45,363 nt of DNA. Source: Atractiella rhizophila (Eukaryota). Position 1 is the stretch's first letter. Every line of letters starts with the position of its first letter. The stretch spans positions 21,339-66,701 of the forward strand of contig MU271429.1 in assembly GCA_021432655.1 (NCBI GenBank). Direction: 5' to 3'. The position numbers and the translations under genes were made by a program. Below the pieces are notes generated by a model, which worked only from the letters and a program-made list of their open reading frames with translations, was not told where the DNA came from and made no database searches. Below are positions 2,169 to 38,840 of the stretch, in pieces.

Positions 2169-2218
2169 AACGTGCTTACCGAGCTCTTCGCTTTTGCAAG
2201 GTTCCGGTATTCCAAGGT
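2169..2218 (+). pseudogene. Decayed fragment of the local kinase-like family
   Basis: cgtgcttaccgagctcttcgcttttgcaaggttccggtattccaagg matches 16526-16573 (RAYRTLRFLQGSGIPR) with a 1-nt deletion. Weaker echoes upstream at ~1768 (KPLAR vs KDPLVR) and ~1968 (EFWG). Confidence 0.65.
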
Positions 2219-2487
2219 GCAGAGAGTTTACCCGGTTGGGTATTTTCATTAGAAAAAGGCAGACTTATTTGTTTTCTGCTCGTCTCCTCCAAGTCTGTTG
2301 CTTCCTTCCTCGTGTTGGTGAGGAGCGATCAATGATGGCCGAAGGAAGGACTGAAAAGAGCAGCATCAACTCTATCTCTGCGCTAAAGGCTGCTGGTGCC
2401 TTGTAAGATATTTCAATTTTATCTTTGCAGTTCAATACCCATATTTTGCGCAACTAAGCTATACGTAGACTTCCATTGCACTTTGAT

Positions 2488-5951: not shown

Positions 5952-10068
<4,117 letters not shown>

Positions 10069-14384: not shown

Positions 14385-15063
14385 GGTGGTTGTATGGAAA
14401 TGATGAGGAGAGAACTGGGTACCACGAATCAAGGGTGCCAACCGCGTTGTTTATAGCTGCTCCCTCCGCTCCTTTCGCTTAGGTTGAGATGGTCCGTCGT
14501 GTTCACAGCAACGCAGCAACGTTTCTACGCTAATCAAAAGGACCACATTGGGATGGCATCACCTTTCATTGAGGTCATTCTCTCCTTCTTCTTTTTTTTT
14601 CCCTTCAAAGCATTCGTTTTCAAAGGGACCTTATTTGGGGCATCTTACTCTTTGTTTGATTGTTCTTGGTTATGCTACCTACTGCTTTCTCGAGTCAGCT
14701 TGGGTTCGCTGTACAATTGGATTTGACGAATTTAGGGAATGATGTGCAACCCTTTATGGTTATTCCTTTTGCTATCCACTTTATATTTGTGTTGATTGGG
14801 TACCAAACGTGGCAAAGCCGTCCAGTATTCAAGTTGCGCCACTCGCCCGTATGTTTCGTTTTCAATCTCTTCTTGTTTTGTCATAACCTAGTCTGGTCTA
14901 TCTAATCCTTTGTCGCACGATACGCTCCTTTATCATAAACCGACTGCCAGCTACTACCGTCGTTTCTGCAATCGAGACTATCTGCGTGACTGCTCTGTTT
15001 CCCATCAGGGCCTTTGTGCTTCGTACTACGCCGCAAACTTGCTGAGCCTCTGAAATGGCTCAG

Positions 15064-17236
15064 ATGCGACTGCAAGCTCTTCTCACCCCAACGTTTTTTA
15101 TCCCTCTTGGGAACGATGAGAGCACACAAGTCCCTCGACTCCTCTTTCAGGACGTTTGCGAACCTCATGCCAAATCTCAGTCCTTGATTACGTGCGAGCA
15201 ATACTTCCCGCGAAGACCAACAGATAAATTTTTTGATGTTTGCTATGGTGATCACCTGAAGAAAGATATCGAACTCCTTCCTTCAACCGTGCTCGCTCCT
15301 TTCTGGCCCGAAATTATGTTATATGGAGAGGTGCAACAGTGAGATCGTGCTCGTTCATCACTTGTACTCTTGCTGATCGCGCCTGCAGTAACTCTCGCCT
15401 TTCGTCCGTTTTGATTGATATGCAGACTTTCTTGAAGTATATGTATCCTTCACGAGCATCAGGTCCACTATCCATTCATGTCTCTCACCGGAAGTGCTCC
15501 TCAAATGGATGTCGGAGCGAAAATGTCGATCTCATAAGCTTACAGCTCGATGATGAAGTTCTCGCTCTCCTAGTTATCTTGGTTCGTGCAGTATCAACGG
15601 CCCGCAGATTACATACTAAATCTGAATGCAGGAGACGCCAGGCACGATTTGTGAGGAAGACTGGAAAAGTCCCACGTCTTCGCCCATAGATTTTGGGGAT
15701 ACTTCCAAGGTAGCAGGGAACTACCTGGCTTTCCTTCAATCTCTCGGTATCACTGGGTTGAACTATGCCGCTTTCCTCGATTTCAAGTCAACAGTCATCG
15801 TCAACATCTCCCGGTTCTTTTCTTGCGTCTCATTTGAGGATGGACCATATCTTCCCACGCTGACCCTTCTCAGCGAGGTGTTTTCTCGACGATGGGACTG
15901 CTCAAAATTTTCCCACCAGACTGGCGAAGCATCTTTCCCACGAGTCCTCGTATCCGGCGCAGGAAGAAATCCAAACGAAAGGCTGCAGGTGGATCTCAGC
16001 GCAATATCAATGGCAGCTGACCTGGACCTTTATGATGCTCAGAACGATAACGGTCCGATTCTGGGCGCCATGGCAAATTGGCACAATAGCCGGCTCAGAA
16101 AAGGCCAGGTTTGGCTCGACGCGCTCCGTTTACCAGGCCACGAGCTTCGAGTTGTTTCTGTGATTTCCGCTTATACCACCAGTTCAGAATCATTAATCCC
16201 GCCTCTGCTTATGACCGCGAAAGACCCGCTAGTGAGATTTTTTCAAAACATACTCTTCCAAGCGACTTCCGCCGTTCGACCCTCTACTGAAAGTTTTTCA
16301 CTCCGTCCAGGAGACTCGATTTTTCTCGAGAGCTCTTTACGTTCCGGACGAGAATTTTGGGGCCAAACCTTTGAAGTAAGGGTTTCGCCGTTGGGAGCGC
16401 AGAGGTTAGTCTTGAAGATTTACGATGAGCGTCTCTTCCCTCGTCCAGCATGGGAGATGGGCTATGACCGGATTTTACGCATAAGACGATGGCCGAATGC
16501 AGAAGATTCGTGGCAGCGCGAAGAACGTGCTTACCGAACTCTTCGCTTCTTGCAAGGATCTGGCATTCCAAGGTCGTACGGTTTCTACCGTGTAAGCTTG
16601 TTTTCATCGAGAGGAGCTTTTAATAGACCTTTTACAAACAGATTCAGCTTCCAGATGGCGAAATGGTGGCAGCTCACCTCTTGGAATATGTGGAAGGTTC
16701 ACACCTTGATGATACCTTGCTCAATGACCTGTCTGAAAAGGAACAGCAGAATTTCGTGAGTTTTCTAGTTGATGCTCACTCGACATTTACTCATCTCAAA
16801 TCAGTTCAATAAAGGAATGGCTTTGATGGGTGCAATGTTTCTCCTTGGTGTCAACCACACAGATCTTCAAGACCGTCCCGATCAGATCATATGTCTTCCT
16901 TCCGCCTGCCCTGGCAGTGCACCCAATTTGGTGCTCATCGATTTCGGGATGAGCAATTTGGTTCCAATAGATGAGAGCTGGCTGCTGTCCGACTGGGCGT
17001 GGGACCTGTCTATCTCGGAGGACTCTCGCTGCATGAATCAAATGCTCAATGAACAACTTGGCTGGACTCTGCCGGATGACAAGGACAAGCATCCAGAGGT
17101 TTTTTTAGATCACACGTGGGAGATTTTGCTGAGAGAGCGAAAATTCGGTATTCTTGATGTGAACTGGGACGAGGAAAAAAGGGCTAGACAAGGTGATGTA
17201 GAAATGGCTCAGGCAAGTCCCAAACGTCTCAGCTGA
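15064..17236 (+). CDS. Kinase-like family copy 1 (657 aa; possible REase-like N-terminus plus atypical protein kinase-like domain)
   Basis: Exons 15064-15338, 15389-15581, 15632-16591, 16642-16755 and 16805-17236 join in frame through canonical introns. Kinase motifs: LRSGREFWGQTF, LVLKIY, REERAY..L..LQGSGIPRSYG, LLEYVEG, HTDLQDRPDQII, LIDFGMS. Confidence 0.85.
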
Positions 17237-17552
17237 ACTACTCTAGTCGCATATACTTCGGTATTAAATTAGGAGCTACAAAATATATCTGAACTTGGCG
17301 GTGTTGGGTTTGCATAGTTTCGTGCCACCAAGTGGTAAAGTTTCTTACTTTCCTTGAATGCCATCCACTACTTTTACTTGCCACTCTTGTAGATTAGATA
17401 AAGAATTCCACTCGGTGGTGCTCACGCGTTTGCAACAGCTCAGCGAAACGGACCCCGCATTCTGACGATGACCCTTGAAGTATGTGTTATCTTCTCCCAA
17501 ATATTGTCTTGCACTGCGCCGAACTGTCCAGCTTTATGACTGCTTATTGCAA

Positions 17553-18640
17553 TTGAGCATTAGGGAAGCGTTCAAGTTACTATCTCAACTCCAAAGCTTC
17601 GCTAGAGTTGACGCGCTGTTGTGCTTCCAACGTGAGTTTCAATCTAGTTACTAGGGCTTGAAGGAGCAGTCAAGAGAGAAGAGTCATTTCGACAATCTAC
17701 GCTTTTGTTGCAAGGCACGCTTCCTGGTACAAAGATTCAGGAACTGAAGGTTTACCGTTGTCACGATGATACCAGCTGTTCCGTTTGACGGTGACACTGC
17801 ACCGTGACCTGGAGGACCATCTCACGAACGTCGGCGAGGCACGCGAAGGTACCATCCGTTTCCAGGCATGGCTGATGTTCCATATATGATTCCAGGATAT
17901 TAGCAGAACTGCAGTCTATGTTAGGCGTATTCTATTTTTTCACAGTGGAAATGGGAGCTCGCCATGGTGATGCTACATTTTGGCTGCCTGCATTATTCTT
18001 CCTCTCTTCATCATTTCTTGAACAATTTGTCAAATGGTCATGTGATGTTCACTTTTCTCAAAAATGTGAATTCCTAAACTACTTATTGTATCCTTCTTAT
18101 TGCATACTTGAGCATTAGGGACGTTCAAGTTACTATCTCAACTCCAAAGCTTCGCTAGAGTTGACGCGCTGTTGTGCTTCCAACGTGAGTTTCAATCTAG
18201 TTACTAGTGCTTGAAGGAGCAGTCAAGAGAGAAGAGTCATTTCGACAATCTACGCTTTTGTTGCAAGGCACGCTTCCTGGTACAAAGATTCAGGAACTGA
18301 AGGTTTACCGTTGTCACGATGATACCAGCTGTTCCGTTTGACGGTGACACTGCACCGTGACCTGGAGGACCATCTCACGAACGTCGGCGAGGCACGCGAA
18401 GGTACCATCCGTTTCCAGGCATGGCTGATGTTCCATATATGATTCCAGGATATTAGCACGAACTGCAGTCTATGTTAGGCGTATTCTATTTTTTCACAGT
18501 GGAAATGGGAGCTCGCCATGGTGATGCTACATTTTTGGCTGCCTGCATTATTCTTCCTCTCTTCATCTACCTTCATTCTTTGTCAACAATTTGTCAAATG
18601 GTGGGCATGACTTGTATGTTCACTTTTCTGCCAAAAAATG
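17553..18640. repeat. Near-perfect tandem duplication, period 553 bp
   Basis: For example, ttcgacaatc at 17688 and 18241. The cores are almost identical. The junction at ~18010-18110 is a deletion-riddled version of 18560-18700. Confidence 0.9.
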
Positions 18641-19010
18641 GCTGAGATGTCCTCCGAGGATCTGACCTTTGTAAGTATCACTTCCAATAACATTACTTGG
18701 ATTCACCGGCACTGTGACGTCGATATCTTTGTAATAGGCTAGCAGGTTCTTTGTTCAGACCTTAATGTTACTCCCCATGCAGAAGTGCAGTCTTTGTCAT
18801 CTGCACAAAAGGCAGCATTCTTATTTTTGTTAACGAAGCAATGGCGTGGAGAGTTATATGTTCTTATACTCACTGACCTGTTGCCTTATCTGGGCACCGG
18901 ATCCGGAGCGTCGCTTCTTCTGGCGGTCTACTTCGCCGTTTTTCGTCTCTTTTGGTCCTGTTCTTACGTGGATCTTTAAAAGCACAAGAGCAACGGAGAA
19001 CTATAGGATG

Positions 19011-21153
19011 ATGCGGCTTCCTGCCTTTCTCAAACCGGCCTTTCGTATGCATGCCAACCCTACCAAAAGTCCGCCTCTCCTACAGGATGTTTCTGGAGAA
19101 CCTCACACTCTGTCGAAGTCGCTGTTCACCGGCGCGCAATTTGTGCCCACGAGAGAGACGGACAAGTTCATGAAGGTTTCATATCGTGATCACCTACGAA
19201 AAGACCTTGAGCTGCTGCCTCTGAATGTGGTTGTCCCATTTTGGCCGGAGATCCTGATTGATGGCGAAGTTCTGCCGTAAGACCAATGGTTCCTCTCCCG
19301 TCTCACTGACCGTGTTGAGTAGGGAATCTCCTCTTTCTGCGTTTTTGCTCGATATGACGACGCTATTGAGGTATATGTACCAGCGAGGGCATCTACACCA
19401 CTTTCCATCCACGTTAAGCATCAGACCTGTTTTGCCAATGGAGTCCGGACCCAGGATGTGGAGATTGTGAGCGTACAAATAGAGAAGGAGATATTGGCAG
19501 TTTTTGTCATCTTAGTAGGTGTTGTGTAACGGTTTGTAGGCTATACTAACATGGAGAATAGGAAACTCCAGGCACTCTCCGTGAACAAGACTGGGAGCCT
19601 CTCGCCCACTGCTCCATCGATTTTGCGGATACGTCACAAGTAGCAGGCAACTACTTAGCCTTTCTTGATTCCCTCGGCATTTCCGACCTCAACTTTGCAG
19701 CTTTCCTCGATTTCACATCTACCATCGTCGTCAACATCTCTAAGTCTTTCTCTTACGTCTCTTTTGAGGAAGGAGCCTATCTTCCGGCATTGACGCTTCT
19801 GAGTGAGGTCTTTTCTAAACGATGGGACTGCTCAAAGTTTTCACATCAGACTGGGGCATCGTCCTTTCCCCGAGTTCTTGTGTCTGGAGCGGAAAGAAAT
19901 CCCAATGAGGAGCACGATGTGGATTTGAGCACAATAACGCTGGCTGCTGACCTGGATCTTTATGACGCTCAAAATGACGATGGTACCATCCTTGATGCGA
20001 TTGCAGATTGGCACAATGATCGCCTCAATAAGGCTCGACTTTGGCTCGATGACCTCCGGTTACCAGGTCATGAGCTTCGAGTTATTTCTGTGATTTCTTT
20101 GTGCCTTCCCAGCGCAATATCGTCCATTCCACCTCTACTCATGACCGCGAAAGACCCGCTAGTCCGATTTTTTCAAAATATCCTTTTTCAAGCGGCGTCC
20201 GCCGTTCGACCATCCGTCCAGACTTTCTCACTCTGCCCAGGAGATTCTATTTGTCTCAAACGTTCTTTACGGTCGGGACAGAAATTTTGGGGACAAGTTT
20301 TTGAGGCAAAGGTTCACGCCGTGGAAGCCCAAAAACTGGTTTTGAAGATTTATGACGAACGCCTCTTCCCTCCTCCGGCGTGGGAGATGGATTACGAGGG
20401 CATTTTACGGATTAGGCGATGGCCGAACGCAGAAGATTCGTGGCAGCGCGAAGAAAGAGCATATCATGCTCTACGCTTTCTGCAAGGTTCTGGCGTTCCA
20501 AGATCCTACGGCTTTTACCGAGTGAGTTCTTTATCGTCGGAGCTGACTTTTTGATTATCTTCTACAATCAGATTCAGCTTCCCGATGGCGAAATTGTGGC
20601 GGCTCACCTCATGGAATATGTGGAAGGTCCACACCTCGACGACACTTGGGTCAGGGACCTGTCCGAAGAAGAACAGCAGAACTTTGTGAGCGCAGGTCTA
20701 TTGTGCGTTGATCATCATTTCATTAACCTCAAGCAGTTCAACAAAGGGATGGCGTTGATGGGAGCCATGTTTCTCCTCGGAGTGAACCACACAGATCTTG
20801 ACGACCGACCTGACCAAATCATCTGCCCTCCTTCTTCCACCCCAGGTGCTTCCCCTGATTTTGTGATCCTCGACTTTGGGATGAGCAATCTGGTTCAAAT
20901 GGATGAAAGCTATCTTGCCTCTGTGTTGGCATGGGATCTTACCATCTCCATCGATTCCAATTACATCAATCGAATGCTCAATGACCAACTTGGCTGGAAC
21001 CTGGTACATCATCAGGAAACACACCCAGAAGTGTTTTTGCGCTTTACGTGGGAGATTCTGGTGAGGGATCGAAAGTTCGGCATTCTGGATGTGAACTGGG
21101 ACGAAGAAAAAGGCTTTTCCCATCATCCAAACGCATCAACTACCAGCCAGTGA
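19011..21153 (+). pseudogene. Kinase-like family copy 2, with a 1-nt frameshift near 19380 (real or sequencing error)
   Basis: Same 5-exon layout as copy 1. Exon 2 reads TATATGTAC CAGCG where the paralogs read YMYP(A/S)RA. Restoring one C gives YMYPARASTPLSIHV and an otherwise open gene. Confidence 0.75.
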
Positions 21154-21428
21154 TGACATCCTTTGACCTAGAACTCACTTTTATTCACGTTAGATGCAAT
21201 GTGATTAAGCAAGACATTTCACAATCAGCACTCGAAGAGTTTATGGACGGTGAACGACTATATGATTATGCGGACCTAATGTTTCATAAAATACAATGCT
21301 TTATGCACGAACCGGCATTCATAAAAGGTCAGTCAAACGGTGGCTATGGTAACTCCTAAAACTTGTGCTCAAAAGGATCAAAATCGAAATTAAGACGAAA
21401 CGGACTAAGACTCCCTCGCCATCTAAAG

Positions 21429-24400
21429 TTACGTGGTGAGGTAGATTTTCTGGACATCTGCTACCCCAAAGGCGACTTGACAGCCTGGACATTTCCGTTG
21501 TCTCGTCTCTATACGGGCGTCTATGCATTCTTTGCAGAAGGTGTGGAAACATCGCGTGATGACATGCGACTTGAAACGTTCGTTGCAGCTCGAACATTTT
21601 AAGAGTTTCTGTTCCCCTTGTAATCAGCACCCAAACTCATCAAGTTTGAAGGAAGGAAGGCGGACCTGAAGGTGCTGCGTTGTTTCCCGTAATTGCCCCA
21701 GCTCTGCGTCCAGCGCCCCATTCCCGTTCACGAATTGGGATTTTATCACGGATTGCTGTTGTGCTGCTGAACGCAACTTTTGAAGGCGAATGATATCCTC
21801 TTCAAGTTTCCTCCTCTCCCGCTGCTCTGCTGAACGACTCTCCAGCAACTGACGGTTCGACAACTCCAGCTACACCCATCGATACCATAGTCAGTCTGAG
21901 GCCGCCTCGACAAGAAAGACGGTATTGAGCTTCACGAACCTCATTGACCTTCTTCTGCGCGACCTCCTCCTTCCTAGTCAAATCTTGACTCTGCAGGGTG
22001 AGTTCTTCAAATCGAGACTGAAGAGTCCGGTACGCCACTCGCTGTTGATTAAGTTCCTGCTCGATATTTGTCTACCGACAACAATCAATAACATTCTTAA
22101 GACTGCAGCAGAATGGGGAAGGAGTACGAGAGATGCGCTGATAGTCTTGTTGCTCTCTAAGGTCGACTCGACTGCCTTTTGCTGCTTGTCCGTCAACCGA
22201 TTTAGCACTTGATTCTCCCCCTGAAGAGCTTCCTTCGCACGCATCGCAGCAAAATATCGATTATCGGCCTTTGCTTTCTATGCACAGCCAAAGCTATCAG
22301 CACATCCTTCTCCACCACAAGACATGACGACAGACCTCTGTGAGCAGTTTAGCGACCTTCTCCTCCAATCCAACAAGGGTGAAGACTTTATTCGAGCACT
22401 GCTCATCGAGCGTCTGCCAGGCAGCCGAGAGTCGATCAACTTCTCCATAAAGCATGGATGTCGAAGCCTCCTGCGTCTTAAGCTGAGCCTCCAGGATGCG
22501 GACTCTTCGATCCCTCTCCTCCACCCTCTCCTTCAACTGTTTGACCTCCACACTTGCGGCATCGCCAACCAACGCCTGCAACCGCTCCAGCTGCTCCTTG
22601 ACCTCTCGAAGTTCCATCCTCGCCTTCTCCTCGCTCTGCATGATGGTTTGGACGTTCAAGAGGCCGGAGTTCTGCGAGTAGCTCTTCAGTTGGTCCCGAA
22701 GGGTGAGCGCGAGAGATTCGGCACGCTTCAGTCGGCCCTCCAGGTCCTTCATCGCGTCCAGCTCCTCGTCTGCATACGTCTCCACGAGCTCCGTCTCCCC
22801 ATTGTTCGCAAGGATACGCATCTTCAGTCGTTTGACCTCCGAAGCATACGCCGCCAGCCGGTCCTATATCACCGGTACGGTGAGACCCAGATCATGGAGG
22901 AGGAGAGTGACGAGTGACACACCTTTTGTGAAAGAGCAAGAGTCTTCACCTGTTCCTGGTGCTTCATCTTCTCCGCTTCCCGCGCCTTCAACTCCGTCAG
23001 CTCCGACCTAAACTCCTCCCTCTGCCCTCGGACCCTCGTCAAGTCAGACTCTTTCGCGTTGAGCTTCTTTTGAGAGTCGTCCGTGATCGCATGTGCTTCT
23101 TTCTACATCACAATGCAACAACTCAGCCTTGGAAGGGGATTGGGAGGGATGGGACCGGGCGACGAACGATGACATCCTCGCGGAACCGTTGTTGCTGTTC
23201 CCTCATCTTTGCGTTCTCGCCACGCAGTTCCTCTGCCTCCTTTTTGGCGCGTTCACTGTCGGCTTTGAGGAAGGAAAGGTGGGCGTGAAGCTGTCGATAG
23301 TGTAGGGATTCCTGCACAGTGTCTTCGGGAAGGTCGACGAGCTGTTCCCTCCGGCGTTAGCCTGCATCCTATTAATACCACTGAGGAGACAAACGGAGAG
23401 CCTTAGGGATTGTAACTCGTTCTCGAGCATCACCTTCTCCCTTCGCACGTCCTCAATCTCCCGCAGTCTCGCATCCGCAATCTCCCTCAACGCCTCCAGC
23501 TCTTCCTGTTCGTCCTTAGAAATATGTGCAATAACAGGTTTCACCTCATCGACCTAGAACAACAAACTTCACCATCCGCTCCTCACACACGAAGGAACCA
23601 ACCCACCTCCATCATCGTATCGTTCACCTTAACCTTCTCTTCCTCTTCCTTCCGCCCCTCCGCCCACCTCACGCTCGAGCTCTTCTCCCTCTCTCCCCGC
23701 TTCCATATCGCCCGACACCGTTCCCGTTCGCTCTCCCTCTCGTCGCGTAGGCGCTCAACATCTTCTTTGAGCACTTGCACGGCGGCGCGGAGGGAGGAGG
23801 ATTCGGAAACGAGGGTGGAACAGCGCGATTGCAGATCCTCCGTCGACGGTGGCGTCGGCGGATTCTGTCCTGGTGGAAGACAGCGTAGAAGACTTAGGGT
23901 CGAGGATTGTAAGGAAGATAGATGGGTTTGTAGGCTGGTTAAAGTGCTGGTGGGAAGTTCGAGGTCGACAAGGGAGGCGGAAAGATCTTAACAATCGAAC
24001 ACGACATGCATGTCACATGCCCTCCTTGGTACTGATGAGAGAAAGACACATACCTAGGATGGAATCTGAAGAGTGCGGGAGAGACTTCTGGTCACAGAGT
24101 ATCCGGACGTCTTCGACCAACTGTCCCATCGTCACCAACAGACATCAACACACGACTTCCTTTTCTAGACCGAGCAAAACGCAGGCTCTCAGAAAGCATG
24201 ACTATGTACCTTAGTCCAAAAGACTCCCACTGCAGCCGCACGACACCGTTCGTCCTCTAGCACTCGTTCGAGTTCCCTCTCTCTCTCCTCAGCCTGCAGA
24301 GCACGCAGCTTGTACTCTCCCATCTGCCTCCATATCGCTTCCTTCCGAAAAGACTGTTCATTGCCACATAATACAACATACCCTCAGTTCACCACTAACG

Positions 24401-24591
24401 GAATAGGTAGAAAAGAGAGAATAAGGAGGAGGCGAACGAACCTCGAGATCTGGCGCGTGCGTGGTCGCAATGCCATTTCCGTTGCCATTCGGGAGGGCAG
24501 AGTCAATAAACGGCTTCTTCGAAGGGCCTGGGCTGTACGTCTCAGGCGAGGGCGGGGCTTTGCGCTTGAGCGTGAGAGACTCTGCTGCCAT
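21429..24591 (-). CDS. BRE1: E3 ubiquitin-protein ligase Bre1 (histone H2B ubiquitylation), multi-exon
   Basis: N-terminal SFRKEAIWRQMGEYK, long coiled coils, KADNRYFAAMRAKEAL, and a C-terminal C3HC4 RING CSSCNERFKSHVITRCFHTFCKECIDARIETRQRKCPGC, ending QKIYLTT* at 21429. Not every internal splice site was verified. Confidence 0.93.
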
Positions 24592-24639
24592 CTTCACTTA
24601 ACTCAGTTGGTGGTGTGAGGAGATTTTCGGCAACTGCTG

Positions 24640-24651
24640 CCCTAACCCTAA
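24640..24651. promoter_or_regulatory. Telo-box-like (CCCTAA)2 upstream of BRE1
   Basis: ccctaaccctaa lies ~50 nt upstream of the BRE1 ATG. Confidence 0.3.
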
Positions 24652-26883
24652 TTGCCCACTACTCACTGCAATCGCTACGACCAACGATTATCTGGCTGCC
24701 ATAATAACCACCCAGTGGTTGCGCCTACGACCTACTCACGAGTCTTAGAATCCGCAAAAACACCCTTACCAGCCTTCTCATTTCTCCAAAAGCGCACTCT
24801 CAAAAGGAACGACGTCAAAGTCAAGAACAACAGATTGGGGAGAAAGGCTGGATTGATCACTCTCAACGACGATCCCATTATCGTAGACAAATTCAAAGGT
24901 CAGAGGTGTTGGCAGCGTTATTCGTCTGATTGGAGAAGCGTCTGAGGTATTTGGAGCTAAGAAGTAGAGGTTGAGTGATATTCTACTCCGGATAAACAAC
25001 TCGATCTGTTGGTGAGCACTTCCTTCTTTCTATCTGGAATTGTTTGAGATGGACTTTTCTGTCTGTTTTGTGGCGTATTATGCGCGATTTCAGTGTTCCA
25101 AGCGCCTTTATCGCCCTTTTGAAGCACAACTGATTACCCGGTTGTTGTTGCCATTTTGTCCTTTCACTGACTTTCTACCTTATGTCCTCGCGCCGTGGTT
25201 TCTACCGTGAGCATGAGGACTTAGCTATCACAGTCCTGGGTGATAACTGCAAATGTTCTTGGATCTCTAAAAGGGAGCCCAGACGGCATCGTCATACCTT
25301 GCATACCTGGAGCTCAAGCATTGAAAAGTTACATTGAAAAGTTACGTTGGTTCTAGGTCTAGAATCTCTGAATATTTTTTTGTACAACTTCGAGTACGGC
25401 CTTTGCAGTAATGTGGACTCTATGTTCGATTATGCAGCGGATTTTATCACTTGCCATGTTCTATACTCTTGTGTTATTATTCCGCAAGCACCTTGCTGCT
25501 TTGCAGCCGTTGAATGAGCAGTCGCTGAATGAGCTGCTGCTTAAAGGAGATTTCGTCTTCCATTTGTCTTCGCCTCCATCCAAGGATGTCTGGCACCCAC
25601 TCCTGCTGTGGAACCTAAGAAATATATGGGCATATCTCCAAGGGACAACATGAAGCCGCCATTCGAGATTCTACACCGCAATCCACATCTTAAGTCGAGC
25701 CGTCTGAAGCGATTGGCTAGACTCGACGCGTAGAGCGGAAGGGTATGATCTTGGATTATGGTTCTGTGTTCTGTTGCTCAGCTCCGCACGCTTACCTCGG
25801 ATATAGAGTGTGCGTGTGGCGGTATCTTCCGCATGGACGTACTGTCTTGTCGTCCTGCCAGACTCCTTTCTTTAGAACGACCACAACTTATCATCCCTCT
25901 CTTTCAGGCAAAAGAGCCTTTTCTCTAGCTTTGCGTATTCTCAGCTTTCGAAGCTCCCTCATGTTCCTATCTTTGCTCTCCTTTCAATCTCGGTGGTCTG
26001 AACGTAGTGAGCACTATTAGCCTTCGCAGGTCCAGGTCCGTTACTTCTCTCGTTGGCATCTGTTCCTCTATCTGGATAGTTTCTTTCTCGAGCTGTCCCA
26101 CCTCTCCGCTCTGACTGCTCAGGCGATAACACGGCGTGTGGGCTCCTCCTGTGAGCTTCTCACAGGGATACCTCATGTATCTGTGGCATTCTGTTCGTCT
26201 TCACAACGGACCGCAGAGATACATGGGGCATGGGGAGTCGGGCTGAACGTTAACTCGATCGAACATTCTTTCGGTGCCGTCGGTTTCCATGTAGGAAGGA
26301 ATGAATTCACGGTCCCCGCTCCCAGCTCCTCACCATTGTCCTCTTCCTTTCATGAACGTTTTCATCAGTAGCCATAGCTGCTATCTCTTTCTGCTACTTA
26401 TCCTGCGGTTTGGTATCGGCGCTGGATGTGAGTCACGTCTACATGCGTGTCGCGCCATCAAAACGCCAGAGCGGCGCCATCTGTTCTTAGAAGCGGAGCG
26501 TCAGATTCCGTGTGCTTTCGCGACCCATTGTCATAGCGCGCATTTCGTAGCCCCTATCTTGCGTCTACATCTGGGAGTTCTGCGGAGGAAAGAAACTGAC
26601 GATTCCGTCGAAGGATAGGTTTCTTGAATTCTTTTCACTCGTTCCTCGAACCAAGCAAGAGAAATCGATATCAATAGGCAATCCCTTCGATACCCAACCA
26701 ACCTCCACCCAAGGTTAACGAACGATTGAACGCAACAATCTTCTCGGCAGTTTCGGATTCAAGTTCACTTCACTTTTCTCAGTCATTTTCGAACATTTTA
26801 GAAGTTATCTGGGCACATTATTTATTTAGATGTTTTCGTTTCCTGGGAGTGCCGTTGGAAGCAGGAAGAGAAAGAGAGGGGAG

Positions 26884-29800
26884 ATGGAAAGGGATCAGAG
26901 AGAGTTGAGCATAGAGGTGGAGAGGAGGCAGGTCGCGCCGCCCGGTCAGACATTGCCACCTTGGTACTCGTGGGTCTGCCCTTTGCGTTTCTAGGAGATG
27001 AGCTAACATAAATGAAGTATCACCACGATCCCCGTAGTCTCCACTATCGATGGAGATCCGACCATTGTTGGCTCATCAACGATCATGTATGAGTTGCCCG
27101 CGCTTTACACGGGCGAGGGATCTGTAGCGCTTGGTTGGCCGTATACCACAGCTTTCCCCGCCGATCCTAGCGCGGGCATCGTGGTCAGCATCGTCGGTGG
27201 GACTCAGGGTCTTGTTACCATTGGTGGACCAAGCGGCTTCGGTGCTTCCCCAGTTGTTCCAACGCCAACTCCCGGTACTCCTGGCTCTCCTGGTACCGCT
27301 ACGCCTCCTGGCTCTTCCCCGGTACAGGGAACAGCTACCACCAGTTTTACAACAGGCACGTCTCCAACGACTACGACTTCTGCATCCTCTACGACGACAA
27401 CAGGAGAAGGAGGCTCCCTCCAGCCTTCTGGAAAGTCGGTGTCGTTATCAGGAGGCCAAATTGCAGGCATCGTTGTCGGTTCTTTCTTTTTCCTCCTTCT
27501 CCTCGTCGCCCTTTTCCTCTTCATCATGTACCGTCGCCGACGGCGTCGGAACCAGCGGCTGGCTCAAGCGCACAGCACGACGGATTGGGAGTTCGTGCGC
27601 TCCCCAGAGACGAACGCCCCTCCACCGCCTGGCGCCGTCATCCCAGACCGCGGACCTTACGGGGATGTGGAAAGCGAGGGCGAGGTGAGGGAGGGAAATG
27701 CTTTGATCAGCGCTATGGGAGGAGCTGGGGGGTTGGCGGGTCTTGCGAGTCGGAGCAGGGAGATGATGAGTAGGTTGAGCAATCGGGGAGGAAGCTCGAC
27801 TATTCGGCCAAGCGAGGATCGACCGGATTCGAGAAATATCTTTCCTAGTCAAGACCAGGGACAAGATGCTACCGAGGTATTAGGGACTGAGGCAACTCGA
27901 GCTGGGGAGAGGCAGGGACTGCTAGGGCAGGAAAGCGATCATCGATCAGCATCTAGCGGGGACATCGGGACCGTTGTAGCTGGAGTAGGGCTCGGCTTTG
28001 GAGTGCTAGGCGGTACGTTTAGGGGAGAAGACAGTTTGGGCTCTAGTTCAGGGTCGGGTGCCGGAAGAGGCTATGATACTCCAATGACTGGACGTGGTAC
28101 TGGCTCAGGCAGTGAGAGGATGGCAAGTGGAGCAGGCAGCTTGTCGACGTCGAATGAGGGGTCGAGGAATACTCGTGGAACACGCCAAACTAGTGGGTCG
28201 AGTAATCCGTCAGGCTCTGGTTCGGGAAGTGGGAGAGGTGGTGGAGGCGGCCCTGCAGGTAACTCAAGCAGTGGAGAAAGCCCTTCCGTGAACTCTGACG
28301 ACCTCTTTTATTCTCGACCACCTTCAAATCCCTCAGGAGGACGTGGTGCTGGACCTTCGAGCGGCGACCGGCAGTATGGTTGGAATTTAAGAGATGTTGG
28401 AAGAGCTGCAGCTGCAACGGTTGGGTTGGGTGCCCTGGTAAACGCAAAAGGTCGAGACTCTGATGCCTCCTCACCCGAGTCCAACGTTGATGGCCCTTCT
28501 GGCCGCTCGGAGATGTCTCGACCTTCGTTTCAGACAGCTCCAACTGGCCCATCCACCGATCAATCTGTTTATGGGACCGCGACCAGCGGAACTGCGACGC
28601 CAGCCGGAGCTTATCAGTCCGTGGACACATTGAATCCTCAATCCACCGCAAACCGCTCAAGTTCTTCCCTCACTGGTGCTGTCCGTCAAGGTTCTGCGTA
28701 TTCTTCGACATATGGAATGCCAGATGTTTATGCATCCGGAAGCATTGATACGAGTGTCCCAAGTCAAGAAACGCCCGCTTCCTCTCTCCATACCCCTACC
28801 ACCACGGCAGCCAATTCACCTCAACGTGTTCCCTCATCGAGTCCATCATCCGGCAGTGCAGGTTTAACCTCTCGGCGCGAAAACTACCTCCCGCCTATCT
28901 TCACAGGCCGTCGAACAAGCACGATAGCTGAAGAGTCAGAAAGTTTGTACTCCTCAGAGATGAAACGACGCAGCGGAACAGGCTCAGAGTCTCACTCGAC
29001 GATGCGTCCTGTCAGTGTTGGATCCACGTCAAGCGCGAAAGAAGGGATCGGTGGAGTTCTGGCGGGATTGGGTATCAGACTCTTCGGTGCTCAGCGAAAG
29101 GGCACATCGTCACCACGGGAGACGCTCATGGAAGAGAAGGAACCAGAAATGGATGAAAAGCTGGATCCTGAGTCAGAGGAGTCGTCGTGCGTCTTATTCA
29201 TTCTGTTTCTGTGACTGGGGCTAAGCGTACAGCAGATCGAGTCGACATCCGATCCTTCGAGATAATCCACGTTATCGACCAGTTACTACGACCGCTACAG
29301 GTTTTGAGTCCTCTTCGCTGACGGAGCTGGGCAAAATTGCAACTCCCGGCGAAGGGGAAATCGATCCAATCTCAGCGAGCACTCGCACATCCTTCTCGCA
29401 TTCCCAACCCTCTTTACACGCTAATTCCCCAAGTCAATCGGTTCACTCACGACGGTCTTCTGAGGACCGTCGAGAACCCAGCGATTCCTCCACAGATCTC
29501 GCGCGCCGCACACGCTGGTCCAAGGCAACGATGGGCCAGTCCATTCCACCGTCCCCAAGGCCATCTACTGGACATACACTCGACCGTTCCCTTTCTGTCA
29601 CTTCTTCCCTTCATCCAGGATCCCGCAACGTTTCCGAATATGGCGTACTGTCGAGGACACATTCAGCAGGGCAAAATTCTCGGAAAGAAGCCTCGCACTC
29701 ATCTTCTGGAGGAAAAGGTAGCTCGGGGAGAAACGACAGCCACAACTCGTCCAGTTCAAGCGAGCCAGGCTTGAGTCGGCGGCATAGTCACAAAACAGTC

Positions 29801-29908
29801 CCCATCCTGGAAGAGTCTGACGTAGTCCCAAGTCCTGTGGATCTTCAGGTTCCCACATCAAGCAAAATAGAGCAGGAAGCCAACGTTTCGGGAGCTCCCG
29901 CGTCATAA
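26884..29908 (+). CDS. Single-pass membrane protein (~974 aa) with Thr/Pro/Gly-rich ectodomain and long Ser/Gly-rich disordered tail
   Basis: Exons 26884-26963, 27018-29186 and 29233-29908 join in phase 2. TM helix LSGGQIAGIVVGSFFFLLLLVALFLFIMY followed by RRRRRR, typical of fungal Mid2/SKG6-like TM segments. The start codon is tentative. Confidence 0.8.
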
Positions 29909-30140
29909 CACTGTGACTACGATTAGCCAAGTGGACACTGAGCATTTAGTTTCTAGCAGATTGGAGTCGTGACTGAAAATCATTGTGAAAGGACGTATTT
30001 CGATATTCTTCAACGGACTCTTTGAGTGCTTGTGACTTAGTTGCCGATTATGAAAAGTCTTGCTTCATTACATTCCCATCCCAGACATGTACAGGGACGC
30101 GACGAATGAGTTCTAGTGGAGACTGAAAAAAGCTCATTGC

Positions 30141-32252
30141 TTACCACCCCTTCTCTGCATCCCAGTTCACATCCAGAATCCCAAATTTTCGTTTTCTCAG
30201 CAAAATCTGCCACGTGTACCGTAACAAAACTTCAGGGTGCTTTTCGTCATCATCAACCAAGGTCCAACCAAGTCGTTCAATGAGCATCCGATTGATATAT
30301 TCGGAATCCACCGAAATATTAAGATTCCACCCCAACACGGATGTGAGGTAGCTCTCATCCATCTGCACCAGATTACTCATTCCAAAGTCGATGAGCACGA
30401 AATCCGGCGCAACACCTAGGAGGGAAGAAGGAGGGCAGATGATTTGATCTGGTCGATCGTTGAGATCTGTGTGTGTAACGCCTAGGAGAAACATTGCCCC
30501 CATCAACGCCATTCCTTTGTTGAACTGCTCCAGGTTAGTAACTTCAAATGGCGGAAAGAATATCAACACACAAAGTTCTGCTGTTCTTCTTCTGACAGGT
30601 CCCTAACCCAAGTTTCGTCGAGGTGCGGACCTTCGACATATTCCATGAGGTGAGCCGCCACAATTTCGCCATCAGGAAGCTGAATCTGATTGTAGAAGAT
30701 AATGAAAAAGTCAGCTCCGACGAAAAAGAACTCACCCGGTAAAAACCGTAGGATCTTGGAACACCAGAACCTTGCAGAAAGCGGAGGGCATGATAAGCTC
30801 TTTCTTCGCGCTGCCACGAATCTTCTGCGTTCGGCCATCGCCTAATCCGTAAAATACCGTCATAGTCCATCTCCCACGCCGGAGGAGGGAAGAGGCGTTC
30901 GTCATAAATCTTCAAAACCAGTTTTTGGGCTTCCAAAGCGTGAATCTTTACCTCAAAAACTTGTCCCCAAAATTCTTGTCCTGACCGTAAAGAGCTTTCT
31001 AGAAAAATTGAATCTCCTGGATGTATCGAGGTCGTCTGGGCTGAGGGCCGAAGGGCAGACGACGCTTGATAAAGGATATTTTGAAAAAATCGAACTAGCG
31101 GGTCCTTCGCGGTCATAAGCAGAGGTGGGATGGACGAAATTGAACTGGGGAGGCAAGGGGAAATCACAGAAATAACTCGAAGCTCATGACCTGGTAACTG
31201 GAGCTCATCTAGCCACACCTGAGCTTTGTCGAGGCGATCATTATGCCAATCTGCAATCGCATCAAGGATGGGACCATCGTCGTTTTGAGCATCATAAAGG
31301 TCTAGGTCAGCAGCCAGCGTAATCGTGCTTAAATCCACGTCGTGCTCTTCGTTCGGATCCCTCTCAGCGCCAGACACGAGGACTCGTGGGAAAGAAGCTT
31401 CACCAGTCTCATGCGAAAATTGAGAGCAATCCCATCGACGAGAGAAAATCTCACTCAGGAGTGTCAACGCAGGGAGATAAGGTCGATGGTCGAAAGAGAC
31501 GTAAGAGACATATTTAGAGACATTGAGTGTGACAGTAGACTTGAAATCAAGGAATGCGGCATAATTGAGCTCAGCAATGTCAAGTGATTGGAGAAATGCT
31601 AAGTAGTTCCCGGCAATTTGGGAGGTATCCTCAAAGTCGATCGATGAAAACGTGGCACCTTTCCAGTCTTCCTCTCGCAGTGTGCCTGGGGTCTAGGTCT
31701 ATGTGAGTATTTCCCGTCGGTCTTGAAACATGTACCAACCAGAACAACCAGAACAGCTAAGACTTCCTCCTCCATTTGGATTCGCAGAACATCGATCTCC
31801 TGGGTTCTCACTCCGTGTGAAGAACACATCTGGTGGGAAATGTGGATGGAAAGAGGTGCGGATGCTCTTGCAGGGTACATATACGTCAAGAAGTTTTTGA
31901 GGTCGAGCAAAAATGATGAAAGACAGGTTTCGCTACCATAGGTGATCAGCGAGGTGGGGGACAGCAAAAAGGAGTAGCTTCACGGTTGCACATCTCCATG
32001 AACCAAGATATCCGGCCAAAACGGCACAGTCACATTCAAAGGCAGCACCTCAAGGTCTTTTCGAAGATGATCATAATACGAAACCTTGATAAATTTGTCC
32101 GTCTTTCTTGTAGGTTTGAACTGAGCGCTTGTCACCAACGATTTGCACAAGGCATGCGGCCCCTTGGAGACATCCTGAAGGAGCAGTGGTGGAGTTCCAC
32201 CCCGGTCAGAAGGGACATGGAAGCTTGGTGTGAGAAAGGCGAAAAGCCGCAT
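30141..32252 (-). CDS. Kinase-like family copy 3
   Basis: Same 5 exons in frame: MRLFAFLTP..., YMYPARA, TPG, LVLKIYDERLFP, HTDLNDRPDQII, LIDFGMS. It lacks the Glu codon at the start of exon 3. Confidence 0.85.
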
Positions 32253-35200
32253 TATCGGATAAACCTCGATTTGCAGCTGCAGCTAGTAAACAGTTCAACG
32301 CGGGACCATACGAAAAGGATAAATATGCGTGGCACACTTCCATGGCCATTAACCTTTCCCAGTGAAAGAAGCAACTACCAACAACCATTTTTCTCACGCG
32401 GATATGAAAGGGACATGTTGGACAATTAGAAATTACGTTGCGGAGAAGAGGAACGAACACGTAGGCCTCCTTTCCTTTAGAAGTGAATCTGGCGGTGCAA
32501 GAATATCATAGTCAGGTGACAATGCTTGGAATGATACTTACGAAGGATCATAATTGATTCGGATTGAACCATGAAGTGCATGACAGTTTTTGAGTAGCAG
32601 ACAAAGGCGGGCGGTTGTTATTCGTCGAAGCAAAAGTCAACAAAGAGTGAGACCAGGCGGAACAAAGAAACGATAGGAAGGAATAGAAAGGAAGACATAG
32701 GTGCAGGTGCCTACAATTGTGGAAGAGTAGCCAAAGGGATCATTTTTAGGCGTCACATGAAGGATCAAAAAAGATATCATTCATTGCAAAGCAGACAAAG
32801 GAATATCGCTATGTGCGAGGTTGTTTACCATTTCTGTGAGAAAGGATGACGCATGAAGGAATACAGAAAGGCGGGAATAATAGAAACAAAGAAAGTGCTA
32901 CTTCAAGGTGGACGGCCAGAGATGGCACCATTTAGGAACTAATGTTAAGTGCGATGAAAGGCACCAGCCCTCTGACTAGCAGACAAGGCTCTGCTAGAAA
33001 CCTTGACAAAGCAGAGAAAGAAAGGGAAAATAGGCGACAGACGACTGTAAAAGTGGGAAAGTACTAGTACTTCGATGATTTTGGTGGTCGCATTCTCAAC
33101 ACGAATAAATCACGATGTCAAAAATCACAAGCTCCAGCTTTCGTATGGTCGTCCGAACTATCGACGGAAGGAAAGGACCCAGAGGGAGAGGGCATCTGGG
33201 ACCCTGCACAACTGACGAACTTCATCCCCAGAACGAAATTCTTAAACTCATTTACGCCGAATCCACGTTCATAATGCGAGATTAAAACGGATGAAGGAGA
33301 AACATGAAGCTCTGTCGCGAAATTCGGAGGATACGGAGGCTCTTTCCCCAGAGACGACCGTAAGGGCCTGCTAGTAATTTTCATCCGTCGGTACCGCTTA
33401 CTACTCGCAAGACTTGAATTCAGTGTTGCTTTCAGGAAATGTGATGGTATCAAATTACAGAACAGGTTGGACTTGACGTGTGTATTGCCCATGGCATCAA
33501 GACACAGTGTTGGGGATGTTGAAGGTAAATGCCCCCCCCCCCCGTCTAGATGGGCTTGGAAACCGGGGATCCCATCGCTACACATCCCAGGTCTGAGGCA
33601 GAAGCGATGTGAGCAATCCCTGCATCTCGCACTGCCTCTGAAACACAAATAAAGACATCATCACAGTGCGCACAAACATCCTCGAACGATATCTCTGGCA
33701 TAGAAGGCATGCTCCAGCAACAAGCGCCAATCAAGCTACCGTGACAGACACGTTCATCACCTTGGAATACCTCGTGAGGGTCAAAAGACCGTCCCGAGAA
33801 AAGGTTTACATAGAGTATAGAGGTCTCGGTATCCATGAACGAAATACGACAGCATAGGCGCTTCCAGCAAAGTCTAGAACATCTTTATGCCAACAAAGCA
33901 GTCAGCCTTAATAAGTCCGCCCTCCGTTCATCTAACTGCAGGACTTGTCTATGACATGCCTTAATTTCCATCGATGACTAGATGACATCAGTTCTAGCAT
34001 CGTAACCCAACACTGCAGTGGCAGGCACACACAAGCTGTTGGCGAGAAAGTTTGCGTTGTATACACTGTCTAACAACAAATGCCAACCGCCGAAAGCATC
34101 ATAGCGGCGGTTTCTAGATAGCTTGTTGCTTACTACGCTTGCTCTGATGGAGTCAAACAACAGCATCGCAAAGGGCTCACCTTCAAGCCAAATACACAAG
34201 TATATACGATGATAGCATCCTCTATGGATTACAGACGATCAAGGAATTTGTAGAAACAGCGGTGATTTGCAGACAACAAAACACGTCCAAAGAACCTCAA
34301 CATGCCCCTCGGATACGACTGAACTGTGAGACAACTCACCCGTGGATTAATACAATGACGTTCACCTTATAAATCACTAGCACCCTTTTGAACAAATGAT
34401 AAATGCCAGAAAGGTAACACGGCTATAACTGGCGCGAAGCTCGGCAAATTTGAGAGCGCACTGCTGTTCGGACGGGAGGTTGAAGGGATTATGTATGAGT
34501 GACAGAGTGCTGTGGTCTGTTGATGCATATGCCTGCACTCGCTTGCACTGGCGCGTGCTTTGTTGTTGTGATGATCGAGCTGTCAGTCAAGTTGTAGTTT
34601 AGTCTTTGCAAGCAGCGGCCGCGCAACATCACAATGCTACGGTATACAAGAGCAGGATATTTAGGGTATATACCTGTTCCTTAACGTGAGGAGAGTGCGC
34701 CTGCTCGTGGGGTGGATTGCACCAAGGCTTTCGTCCAAACAGGGCCGGATAGCCCGCTTAACAGGCAAGCCCCAACAGGCAAGACCCAACAGAAAGAAAG
34801 GGACATGGCCGTCACACCAAATGCTGCAGGGCTTCAGGGCAAAAGCAGTAATGCTTCTGACCTGCACCCAAAGTGAAGTGGCCAGCAGAGTTGGTGGGTT
34901 GCCAGAGGCACACTTTTTCCGGAGGACCCTTGTACTTTATGGCCCGATGTGGCATGCTACTGGGCATTGGGCATTTACTTTGTGATACATCGTGGCACGG
35001 AACATGAGTCTCTGAAGTAGACATTGGCATTTTGTGGAAGGGAGCAAGAAGCCCTGGAGGAATTTGGGCTTTGGTACTTTGTGACATGGAGCGACAAGCT
35101 CCGTCAGAAATTGGGCTTGGTACGACAAAAAGTGATGCTAGAGGATTGAGGCGATGTGCAGCCGAAGGTGGTGGTTGAGTTGAGGAGCTTGGCCGCCGCC

Positions 35201-35461
35201 TTCGACTCTCTTTCAGAGACGGCCTCGTCCAACGGCACAGTTCCTACCTTACTCTTCTGGAAATACAGCAGAAAACGTAGAACATTGATGTATCCTGTTA
35301 TTTCTGACAAAAAACGTCCTGAATCGTCACGATGAAATGGTAACTGTTTGTGGACTCTGAGTGATTGCTTGTAGCTTACAAGTAGTCGCTATAATGGAGC
35401 GGTCTTGTTGGTCATATTGCATCCAACACAAGTAGCAGGGAGAACAAGCGATCACTACCAC

Positions 35462-37582
35462 TTACGACAACCCCTTTTCTTCATCGCAGTGCACCTCCAG
35501 AATACCGAACTTGCGCTGTCGCAGCAGTATCTCCCACGTATAGTACAAACGCACCTCAGGGTGTTTTTCCTTATCATGGAGTAAGGTCCAACCAAGCTGT
35601 CGGTTGAGCATCCGGTTCATATGAATGGAATCTCTGGAGATGCTGAGATTCCATGCAAAGATAGATGTAAGGTAGCTTTCATCCATCTGAACCAGATTGC
35701 TCATCCCAAAGTCGATGAGCACGAAATCTGGAACGCGGTTTGGGGAGGAAGGCGGACAGATAATTTGATCTTGACGATCTTCAAGATCAGTATGGTTCAC
35801 GCCGAGGAGAAACATTGCTCCCATCAATGCCATGCCTTTGTTGAACTGTTTGGCTTAATGAAATGATGATCAACACAAAATAAACAGGAACCCACAAAGT
35901 CTTGCTGTTCTGCTTCAGAAAAGTCAGTAGCCCATGTTTCGTCAAGGTGTGGACCTTCTACGTATTCCATGAGGTGAGCCGCCACAATTTCGCCATCGGG
36001 AAGCTGAATCTGATTGTAGAAGATTAGAAGATAATTAAAAAGTCAGCTCCAACAAAGAAGAACTCACCCGGTAAAAGCCGTAGGACCTTGGAACGCCAGA
36101 ACCTTGCAGAAAGCGGAGTGCATGATAAGCTCTTTCTTCGCGCTGCCACGAATCTTCTGCATTTGGCCATCGCCTAATCCGTAAAATACCGTCGTAATCC
36201 ATCTCCCACGCCGGAGGAGGGAAGAGGCGTTCGTCATAAATCTTCAAAACCAGTTTTTGGGCTTCTAAAGCATGAACCTTTGCCTCAAAAACTTGTCCCC
36301 AAAATTTCTGTCCCGACCGTAAAGAATGTTCGAGACGAATAGAATCTCCTGGACAGAGAGAGACAATCTGGACTGAGGGTCGAACGGCAGAGGCAGCTTG
36401 GAAAAGGATATTCTGAAAGAATTGGACTAACTGGTCCTTCGTGGTCATGAGCAGAGGTGGAATGCATGACATTGCACTTGGGAGGCAAGGCGAAATCACG
36501 GAAATAACTCGAAGCTCATGGCCTGGTAACTGGAGCTCATCGAGCCACAGTTGAGCCTTGTCGAGGCGATCATTGTGCCAACCTGCAATTGCATCAAGAA
36601 TGGGACCATCGTCGTTCTGAGCATCGTAAAGGTCTAGGTCGGCAGCCACCAGTATTCCACTGAGATCCACGTCATGCTCTTCATTTGGATCTCTTCCGGC
36701 GCCAGACACGAGAACACGGGGGAAACATGCTTCCCCAGTCTGATGTGAAAATTTCGAACAGTCCCATCGCTCAGAAAAGACCTCACTTAGAAGTGTCAGC
36801 ACAGGAAGGTAAGGACCTTCCTCAAAAGAGACGGAAGAGAAAGATTCAGAGATGTTGACTATGACTGTAGATTTGAAATCGAGGAAAGCCGCGAAGTTGA
36901 GCTGAGTAATGTCTAGTGAGTCGAGAAAGGCCAAGTAGTTCCCTGCTATTCCTGACGTATCATCAAAATCTATGAACGAGTATGTGCGACCTCCCCAGTC
37001 TTGCTGACGAAGTGTACCCGGAGTCTCCTAATATCTGAGTTAGGACCGACCCTTAATCTTCAAGCGATACCAACCAAGATAACAAGAGCCGCCAGCACCT
37101 CCTCCATCATTTTCAAGAGCAATATATTCACATCCTGCGTCCGGACTCCATCCGCAAAACAAGTTCGGTGGGTAACGTGGATGGAAAGTGGAGCTGGTGC
37201 TCTCGCAGGGTACATATACTTCAAGAATGTCGTCAAATCAAACAAGAAAGCTGAAAGACGAGATTCTCTGCTTGAGCTCATCAGTGGCACAGCAGATCAA
37301 CGAGTAGTCGTCTTACGGATGCACATCCCCCTGAATCAAGATCTCCGGCCAAAATGGAACAACAACATTCAACGGTAGCAGCTCAAGGTCCTTTCGTAGG
37401 TGATCACGATATGAAACCTTAATCGACTTGTCTGTCTCTCTAGTAGGTATAAATTGAGCGCTCGTGAACAGCGACTTTGATAGAGTGTGAGGTTTTCCAG
37501 AAACATCCTGAAGGAGAGGTGGGCTTCCGGTGGGATTGGAGTAGACAGCAAATGTTGGTGTGAGAAAGGCGGGAAGCCGCAT
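35462..37582 (-). CDS. Kinase-like family copy 4
   Basis: Same 5 exons in frame: MRLPAFLTP..., LVILETPG, LVLKIYDERLFP, HTDLEDRQDQII, LIDFGMS. Confidence 0.85.
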
Positions 37583-38644: not shown

Positions 38645-38840
38645 TTTGATCCAGCGTATTTGTGAAAACCCACGGTTTGATCCAGCGTATTTGTGAAAAC
38701 CCACGGTTTGATCCAGCGTACTTGTGAAAACCCACCGTTTTGATCCAGCGTATGTGAAATCCCACCGTTTGATCCAACGCACCCATGAAACCGATGCCTT
38801 TTTATGCGTGAAACCACCGTTTGATCCAGCGTATTCACGA
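38645..38840. repeat. Array 1 of the TTTGATCCAGCG core (~31-bp unit)
   Basis: Cores at 38645, 38676, 38707, 38739, 38768 and 38820. Unit tttgatccagcgtatttgtgaaaacccacgg. Confidence 0.9.

Follow-up and report, generated by a model that had tools for sequence, protein, structure and literature searches.

What do four kinase-like genes, clustered around BRE1 in the fungus Atractiella rhizophila, encode, and what keeps them there? The genes lie in a stretch of 45,363 nucleotides (contig MU271429.1 of assembly GCA_021432655.1, positions 21,339 to 66,701 of the forward strand), which we call the window. Atractiella rhizophila is a root endophyte of Populus (PMC6450171). [quoted passage not shown] This interpretation is partly supported by our analyses. 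A single chain joins a REase fold to a kinase fold by way of a conserved linker; the ExK of the nuclease motif has been lost, and all parts are under purifying selection. The family is expressed and has been locally amplified, leaving fragments as well as complete copies.

The observation that there are four copies is confirmed. A self-comparison with blastn gives four paralogous regions of about 2.1 kb with 71-81% DNA identity, plus one short relic. Enumerating GT-AG introns yields five exons per copy; the introns are homologous in all four, 46-58 nt long and in phases 2, 0, 0 and 0. The coordinates and strands proposed earlier hold, as do the shared intron positions and phases, for proteins of 638-657 amino acids (aa). 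Copy 1 (15064..17236, plus strand, 657 aa) has exons at 15064-15338, 15389-15581, 15632-16591, 16642-16755 and 16805-17236. The exons of copy 2 (19011..21153, plus strand) are 19011-19276, 19323-19514, 19562-20521, 20572-20685 and 20737-21153; its product is 649 aa, read with an X at one break. On the minus strand, copy 3 (30141..32252, 638 aa) has exons at 32252-31984, 31932-31740, 31692-30736, 30685-30572 and 30524-30141 and begins its exon 3 without the Glu codon, and copy 4 (35462..37582, 638 aa) has exons at 37582-37317, 37267-37075, 37027-36068, 36009-35896 and 35845-35462. Copies 1, 3 and 4 are stop-free in translation. Protein identity is 69-81% overall, with copy 1 at 69-70% to the others and copies 2-4 at 78-81% among themselves. 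The splice model for copy 1 matches an independent annotation, since the A. rhizophila database protein P0003 is 100% identical to it over 657 aa, with the same splicing. P0001 is identical to exons 3-5 of copy 4, while the database annotation splits copies 2 and 3 into fragments (P0017 and P0170 for copy 3).

Four read runs were aligned over positions 14800-33000, a stretch that ends before copy 4. Run X1 is DNA, judging by its even cover, and X3 consists of spliced contigs; the small-share runs X6 and X7 allow no firm statement on expression. Contig ends or loose ends in X3 coincide with predicted splice sites at 15338 (the end of exon 1 in copy 1), at 20572, 20685 and 20737 in copy 2, and at 30524 in copy 3. 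We conclude that copies 1-3 are transcribed and spliced, and that the splice models fit the reads. The X3 depth is about 10 over copy 1 and about 170-315 over copy 2. What the first reading of the locus overlooked is that, with homologous splice sites, exon 2 of copy 2 lacks a base near 19380 in this assembly, which causes a frameshift. X1 and X3 are the two of the four runs with substantial depth there, and both carry one extra base that opens the frame. The frameshift is most likely an assembly error, the alternative being a strain difference; copy 2 is rejected as a pseudogene as far as X1 and X3 go, its frame being open in both.

In copy 1 the REase-fold domain corresponds to residues ~88-246 of P0003 (15316..15892, plus strand), as placed by AlphaFold2 (AF2) models, VIA comparisons and ESM structure matches. 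Its elements are a helix, a long hairpin with D142, a strand ending in I158-L-E160-T-P-G, a helix with NY and a strand with D209. The structure search for this domain used P0012, a paralog without the kinase that shares 67.5% identity with copy 3 across 237 aa. AF2 gives P0012 a confident core of helix, long hairpin, strand, helix, two strands, strand and helix, with a per-residue confidence (pLDDT), taken by block, of 77-93 over residues 81-210. The full-length model of copy 1 has the same elements at 88-246 (mean pLDDT 77, predicted TM-score 0.70), and its residues 1-82 are mostly below 50; searches with this full-length model were filled by kinases and are uninformative on the N-domain. VIA compared P0012 with 48,161 chains, and REase-fold proteins took the first three ranks and five of the first seven. 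BpuSI led (Z 8.3, root-mean-square deviation 3.6, 125 residues aligned) and was followed by EcoR124I HsdR (Z 7.3, deviation 4.0, 121 aligned), a putative REase (6.8), CsgE (6.2), V. vulnificus HsdR (6.0), CadC (5.9) and DrdV (5.8). In a second VIA look the top 13 rows were REases or putative-nuclease or uncharacterised entries, six being further HsdR entries. The Atlas's own model of P0003 matches the SPOK2_N, HSDR_N, MmeI and BpuSI_N clusters at low TM-score. Because REases fill the top ranks with two model sources and the topology fits, we consider it very probable that the N-domain has a REase fold, as the earlier note had supposed, here of the HsdR/type IIG kind; the support is moderate but consistent.

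The catalytic residues of such a nuclease are another matter. All four copies are without a Lys after the third strand, and the catalytic E...D...(D/E)xK is absent; for comparison, active REases of the CifB type are reported to carry E...D...ExK...Q (PMC11342252). Position 142, on the second hairpin strand of copy 1, is D, E, D and N in copies 1-4, and E160 is missing in copy 3 and replaced by Pro in four paralogs. If the register against HsdR is as we presume (it is not taken from a superposition), I158 stands at the Glu position and E160 at the Lys position. The degenerate motif noticed earlier is a real loss, although by this presumed register the equivalent of ExK is I-L-E and not E-T-P. 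D209 is conserved in 9/9 or 10/10 Atractiella rows and in 38/41 other rows, and D169 is conserved within Atractiella. The loss extends to full-length relatives, the long forms: 28 of 30 from outside Atractiella have the segment, with a consensus of F-x-x-P-G, and [DE]xK occurs in 0/28. The ratio of non-synonymous to synonymous divergence (dN/dS) is 0.16 for the REase-fold part (95% bootstrap 0.09-0.21), 0.13 for the linker and 0.12 for the kinase N-lobe; for the N-extension and the C-lobe we give no point estimate, as synonymous divergence (dS) is saturated there in some pairs with copy 1. Since the motif loss is family-wide and selection is purifying, the N-domain is in an old, maintained pseudonuclease-like state. 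Recent decay does not fit these relatives, and nuclease-based toxicity of the family is unlikely.

A family-specific linker follows, recognised from alignment columns (15893..16279 in copy 1, plus strand; G268, D-x-D-L-Y-x-x-Q at 289-296, W309, R375). Its pLDDT is mostly 72-97 from residue 281 onward, with one 10-residue block at 60. The kinase domain of copy 1 (16280..17158, plus strand) contains K421, E456, the signature ExxAY..LQG..P..YG, D537, Q544 at the Asn position and D563-F-G. The kinase call made for this C-terminal part stands: the model has a bilobal kinase fold (Foldseek E 3e-7; VIA Z 14.2 to YabT), and the key residues are retained at 93-100% (K421 in 95/95 rows, E456 in 96/96, D537 and D563 each in 83/89), D537 being present in 10/10 Atractiella rows. 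The catalytic-loop Asn has become Gln in 12/12 Atractiella proteins and 34/41 other long forms, vs 6/58 stand-alone relatives; Asn is kept in 47/58 of these short forms, and five long forms have it too. In the profile the Gln aligns with the Asn of DAPK, the catalytic-loop Lys is replaced, and in the window clade the loop is longer by a 2-residue insertion. As long and short groups are largely clades in the kinase tree, the Gln is best read as a shared marker of the long form and not as the outcome of many independent events. The Atractiella clade stands apart from most long forms in this tree, which may be long-branch attraction, and we claim no gene transfer from it.

How widespread is the family? 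The first homolog search returned only A. rhizophila proteins (12/12 matches), and word-based searches found Atractiella only. Database matches place members on at least seven A. rhizophila contigs, told apart by their lengths. A profile search of 1.84 billion representatives reached further, with 383 matches at E<=0.001, of which 150 are listed. Among the 139 listed matches outside the close clade, 60 match the N-domain or linker profile, 26 of them being the profile's own training set, and 79 (median 314 aa) do not. Thirty relatives were looked up and 26 were named; they are 23 Agaricomycetes, one Dacrymycete and two Atractiella. The long forms looked up are all from Agaricomycetes (18/18, in 15 genera) and are annotated as hypothetical or kinase-domain proteins. 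Relatives with neighbouring accessions on one contig suggest local clusters in Gloeophyllum and Abortiporus too. The earlier note was right that the family has multiple copies, some in fragments and some in local clusters, but the family is not an expansion of this lineage only, since the full-length architecture recurs across Agaricomycetes. When Atractiella and Agaricomycete N-domains are aligned separately, hhalign matches the two groups over residues 150-217 of P0003, with a probability of 41% and a score of 33.8; 40 column shuffles reach 18.1 at most. A hidden Markov model (HMM) of Atractiella N-regions gave weak linker matches only among the other matches. One homolog of 1144 aa, P0044, apparently has two N-domain-plus-kinase units in tandem, which would be either neighbouring copies merged in the gene model or a genuine duplication within the protein.

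Pfam offers no name for these proteins: neither the exons nor the full proteins of the window copies match a family, nor do P0003, P0006 and P0009 at E<=0.1. This includes FunK1 (Pkinase_fungal, PF17667), merely a lower-ranked Atlas look-alike. Searches of the open literature turned up no description of the family, although the CR-REase/kinase clades of Zhang et al. 2016 may already list it.

The pairing of REase and kinase is itself reported to be widespread (PMC12693581, PMC5289972), and two known systems invite comparison. By the features tested, the family is a member of neither: the nuclease Lys, the Spok cysteine cluster and the LFLAK header are all absent. Like the spore killers Spok1-4 of Podospora anserina, the proteins are multi-copy and place an HsdR-like PD-(D/E)xK fold ahead of an atypical kinase within a single chain; V. 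vulnificus HsdR is also the best HHpred match reported for Spok3 (PMC6660238), and the catalytic Asp of the Spok3 kinase, D667, has a counterpart in D537. Unlike Spok3, whose K240 is reported as required for killing (PMC6660238), the family has no catalytic Lys. The C-x3-C-x13-C-x5-H-x7-H cluster is also missing, with a single Cys in the copy-1 linker; no coiled coil is evident at the N-terminus, the linker differs and the range is basidiomycete. Spok1 has been linked to DNA damage (PMC9972908). SPOK2_N (PF27653) gave Atlas feature scores of 0.91 and 0.89, with 149 and 158 shared features and a TM-score of 0.55 by row over 124 residues; a Pfam scan of P0003, P0006 and P0009 found no direct match to it. 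The Crinkler-RHS (CR) toxins, such as P. infestans CRN8, similarly place a REase fold before a kinase and expand in particular lineages (PMC5289972), but in our family no LFLAK/Ubl header is detected, the REase motif is lost and there is no sign of secretion.

The other likenesses are partial. HsdR (EcoR124I, V. vulnificus) and the type IIG enzymes (BpuSI, DrdV) are the best structural matches to the N-domain (Z 5.8-8.3), yet with 6-14% identity, no ExK in the family, a longer hairpin, and fusion to a kinase in place of a helicase or methylase. The closest sequence relatives of the kinase domain, among the matches listed, are stand-alone fungal ExxAY..LQG..P..YG kinases of ~300-370 aa. These account for the 79 of 139 matches mentioned above and are unnamed, with weak Kdo/ABC1/APH/Pkinase matches; they differ in being without the REase-fold domain and linker and in mostly keeping the catalytic-loop Asn. 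Wolbachia CidB has REase folds without active-site residues and a C-terminal enzyme proposed as the active part (PMC11342252), although with four REase units and a peptidase in a bacterial protein, so it serves as an analogy only.

The explanation that we tentatively prefer, and hold at a little short of probable, is a pseudonuclease-kinase of CR/Spok architecture, in which the REase-fold domain binds but does not cut and controls an output kinase in intracellular conflict or nonself signalling. The family would descend from the REase-plus-kinase module of CR toxins and Spok spore killers. Its REase-fold domain would have lost DNA cutting and become a binding or regulatory module for nucleic acid, a rival toxin or a partner; inactive REase domains that are retained have a reported precedent in CifB/CidB (PMC11342252). 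The N-domain may act through the linker on the kinase, which would still bind ATP and phosphorylate itself or a target. The likely role would be nonself or anti-selfish-element defence signalling, and such a role would explain the repeated tandem expansion.

Several points count against this explanation. The query in the fold search was the paralog P0012 and not a window copy, and the best Z of 8.3 is near VIA's stated background of 7-8, with CsgE and CadC ranking among the REases. Foldseek with the N-domain model found no match at E<=0.001 in PDB or BFVD, and Atlas TM-scores by query are 0.28-0.35 only. A plain HMM of the Agaricomycete N-domains scored 2.0 bits on Atractiella proteins vs 4.5 bits in shuffles, the same reverse test being positive for the linker in 2/11 proteins and failing for the REase part. 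D142, D169 and D209 are conserved within the Atractiella clade and could form an unusual metal site, and the change from Asn to Gln, with the catalytic-loop Lys lost as well, may have left the kinase weak or dead. The defence role, finally, rests on analogy.

Other explanations place the activity elsewhere. The proteins might be antidote-only suppressors. Their kinase would then neutralise, in trans, active nuclease toxins of the Spok-like or CR-like kind, encoded in the same genome or brought by competitors, and the dead REase domain would serve for recognition or as a decoy. The Spok3 kinase reportedly confers resistance in cis and in trans, K240A resisting without killing (PMC6660238), and antidote-only alleles are on record (PMC12693581). 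SPOK2_N was the top Atlas feature match both times, and an absent Lys beside a conserved kinase Asp is the pattern predicted. We nevertheless find this unlikely: no active partner and no [DE]xK-bearing member turned up among 28 relatives, the linker is without the Spok cysteine cluster, and the shared Atlas features are fewer than the 170 usual among family members. The proteins might instead be a live toxin-antidote or meiotic driver encoded by one gene, with an active nuclease of rearranged site (e.g. D142, D169, D209) checked by its own kinase. The domain order is that of Spok. Copy-number expansion, relics and candidate gene conversion are reminiscent of drive families, and D169 and D209 are present in 10/10 Atractiella rows and D142 in 7/9. 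It is quite unlikely all the same, with no Lys or general-base equivalent, with position 142 occupied by E and N in copies 2 and 4, respectively, and with the losses at E160 described above. D209 is in a TD/LD turn that is presumably structural in HsdR-type REases, and the low dN/dS between copies argues for conservation and not for an arms race. A broader account is possible if doubtful: a basidiomycete-wide family derived from Spok/CR-type killers would consist either of domesticated guards or antidotes against nuclease toxins and meiotic drivers, or of live drivers with a Lys-free nuclease site and a Gln-type kinase.

That both domains are inactive, the protein being a pseudonuclease plus pseudokinase that works as a nucleotide-dependent switch or adaptor, is suggested by the distribution of Gln and Asn between long and short forms, by the Gln at the DAPK Asn position, by the replaced loop Lys and by the insertion in the window clade. 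Retention of K, E, the catalytic D and the DFG Asp makes this improbable; Gln can still bind metal, and five long forms have Asn. The least likely reading, which we think very improbable, is a Crinkler-like effector delivered into plant root cells. The endophytic life of A. rhizophila and a mycorrhizal CRN precedent (PMC6131194) speak for it, as does the reported share of REase plus kinase among CR C-termini, about one sixth (PMC5289972), and the root metatranscriptome X6 yields a few short contigs that map to copies 1 and 2, at a depth of about 2. The Crinkler-type role raised by the earlier note finds little in the proteins themselves: the LFLAK/HVLV motif is absent in 6/6, there is no strong N-terminal hydrophobic stretch or other sign of secretion, and the first 85 residues have no confident fold in the model. 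CR toxicity is ascribed to the REase, whose motif is missing here, and the 18/18 long-form relatives looked up are from mushroom-forming fungi. These fungi are mostly wood or litter decayers.

The surroundings of the copies bear on how the cluster arose. BRE1 (21608..24442, minus strand, the span of its read-supported introns) converges with copy 2, and a membrane-protein gene with a hydrophobic stretch (25010..29908, plus strand, with GT..AG joints in X3) converges with copy 3. The two are head-to-head, and the copies flank them as had been described; the naming of BRE1 is borne out by a PF08647 match and by minus-strand introns (CT..AC joints) in X3. The membrane-protein gene has a long open reading frame (ORF) at 27016-29214 with weak matches to transmembrane families; its intron at 25010-26618 is unusually long (1607 nt), other introns here being about 50-90 nt. 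Single X3 contigs run from copy 2 into the 3′ end of BRE1 (20737-21797) and from the membrane-protein gene into copy 3 (29312-30524), suggesting that the convergent 3′ ends overlap at both places. A mirror (palindromic) duplication or inversion of a tandem pair as the origin of the ++/-- layout is ruled out by the identities, because copy 1 is the odd one out, with about 70% identity to each of the other three. Homologous motifs had been said to occur in the 3′ flanks of copies 2-4. This holds for copies 2 and 3 (score 41 vs a shuffled maximum of 28, reached by 0/200 shuffles) and is marginal for copies 3 and 4 (29 vs 28, 0/200) and for copies 2 and 4 (27, 1/200); the same shuffle-scored comparison gave no 3′ flank similarity of copy 1 with copies 2-4.

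A patch of ~300 nt in the kinase N-lobe (20290..20620, plus strand, approximate) is a candidate gene-conversion tract, with 92-96% identity among copies 2-4 and identical runs of 68-74 nt. Its dS is 0.18-0.29, vs 0.55-1.44 elsewhere for the same pairs, and X1 depth rises three- to four-fold in its bins. The low dS and raised depth point to gene conversion among the copies, also with copies elsewhere in the genome; local constraint is the alternative. The relic noted near 2170 is real, a frameshifted kinase ERAY..LQG segment of ~100 bp (2169..2269, plus strand; nhmmer E 1.7e-10; blastn E 2e-11, 90% over 51 nt). It is flanked by paralogous genes at 62-1235 and 2488-4086 (minus strand) with 68% DNA identity and no Pfam match, one of them a 532-aa single ORF with a look, by eye, of an F-box/leucine-rich-repeat protein.

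Elsewhere in the window, a 553-bp tandem duplication at 17540-18637 (94.7%, differences mostly indels) is probably an assembly artefact or strain difference; X1 skips one duplicated unit and has about half depth there. The housekeeping gene for alanyl-tRNA synthetase (PF01411) is at ~5700-10000 (plus strand). Short direct repeats occur at 38646-38779 and 39823-39951, in a region without recognised genes. An apparently intact retrotransposon of the long interspersed nuclear element type (41210-45363, plus strand), 3.6 kb from copy 4, combines a gag-like ORF, which includes a zinc knuckle, with a second ORF that overlaps it and contains endonuclease and reverse transcriptase.

REase-plus-kinase proteins are known as killers, with the nuclease as weapon and the kinase as safety catch. 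Here an unannotated family, found in many basidiomycetes, keeps the layout under selection with the cutting motif lost and the kinase catalytic loop changed. The mechanism of kinase protection is described as still open for Spok (PMC12693581), and the family provides a natural 'nuclease-off' comparison for this resistance question, as well as a testable domain architecture for a set of fungal 'hypothetical' kinases. Should the proteins prove to be either domesticated guards or live drivers, Spok-like conflict biology would be extended to mushroom-forming fungi and Pucciniomycotina.

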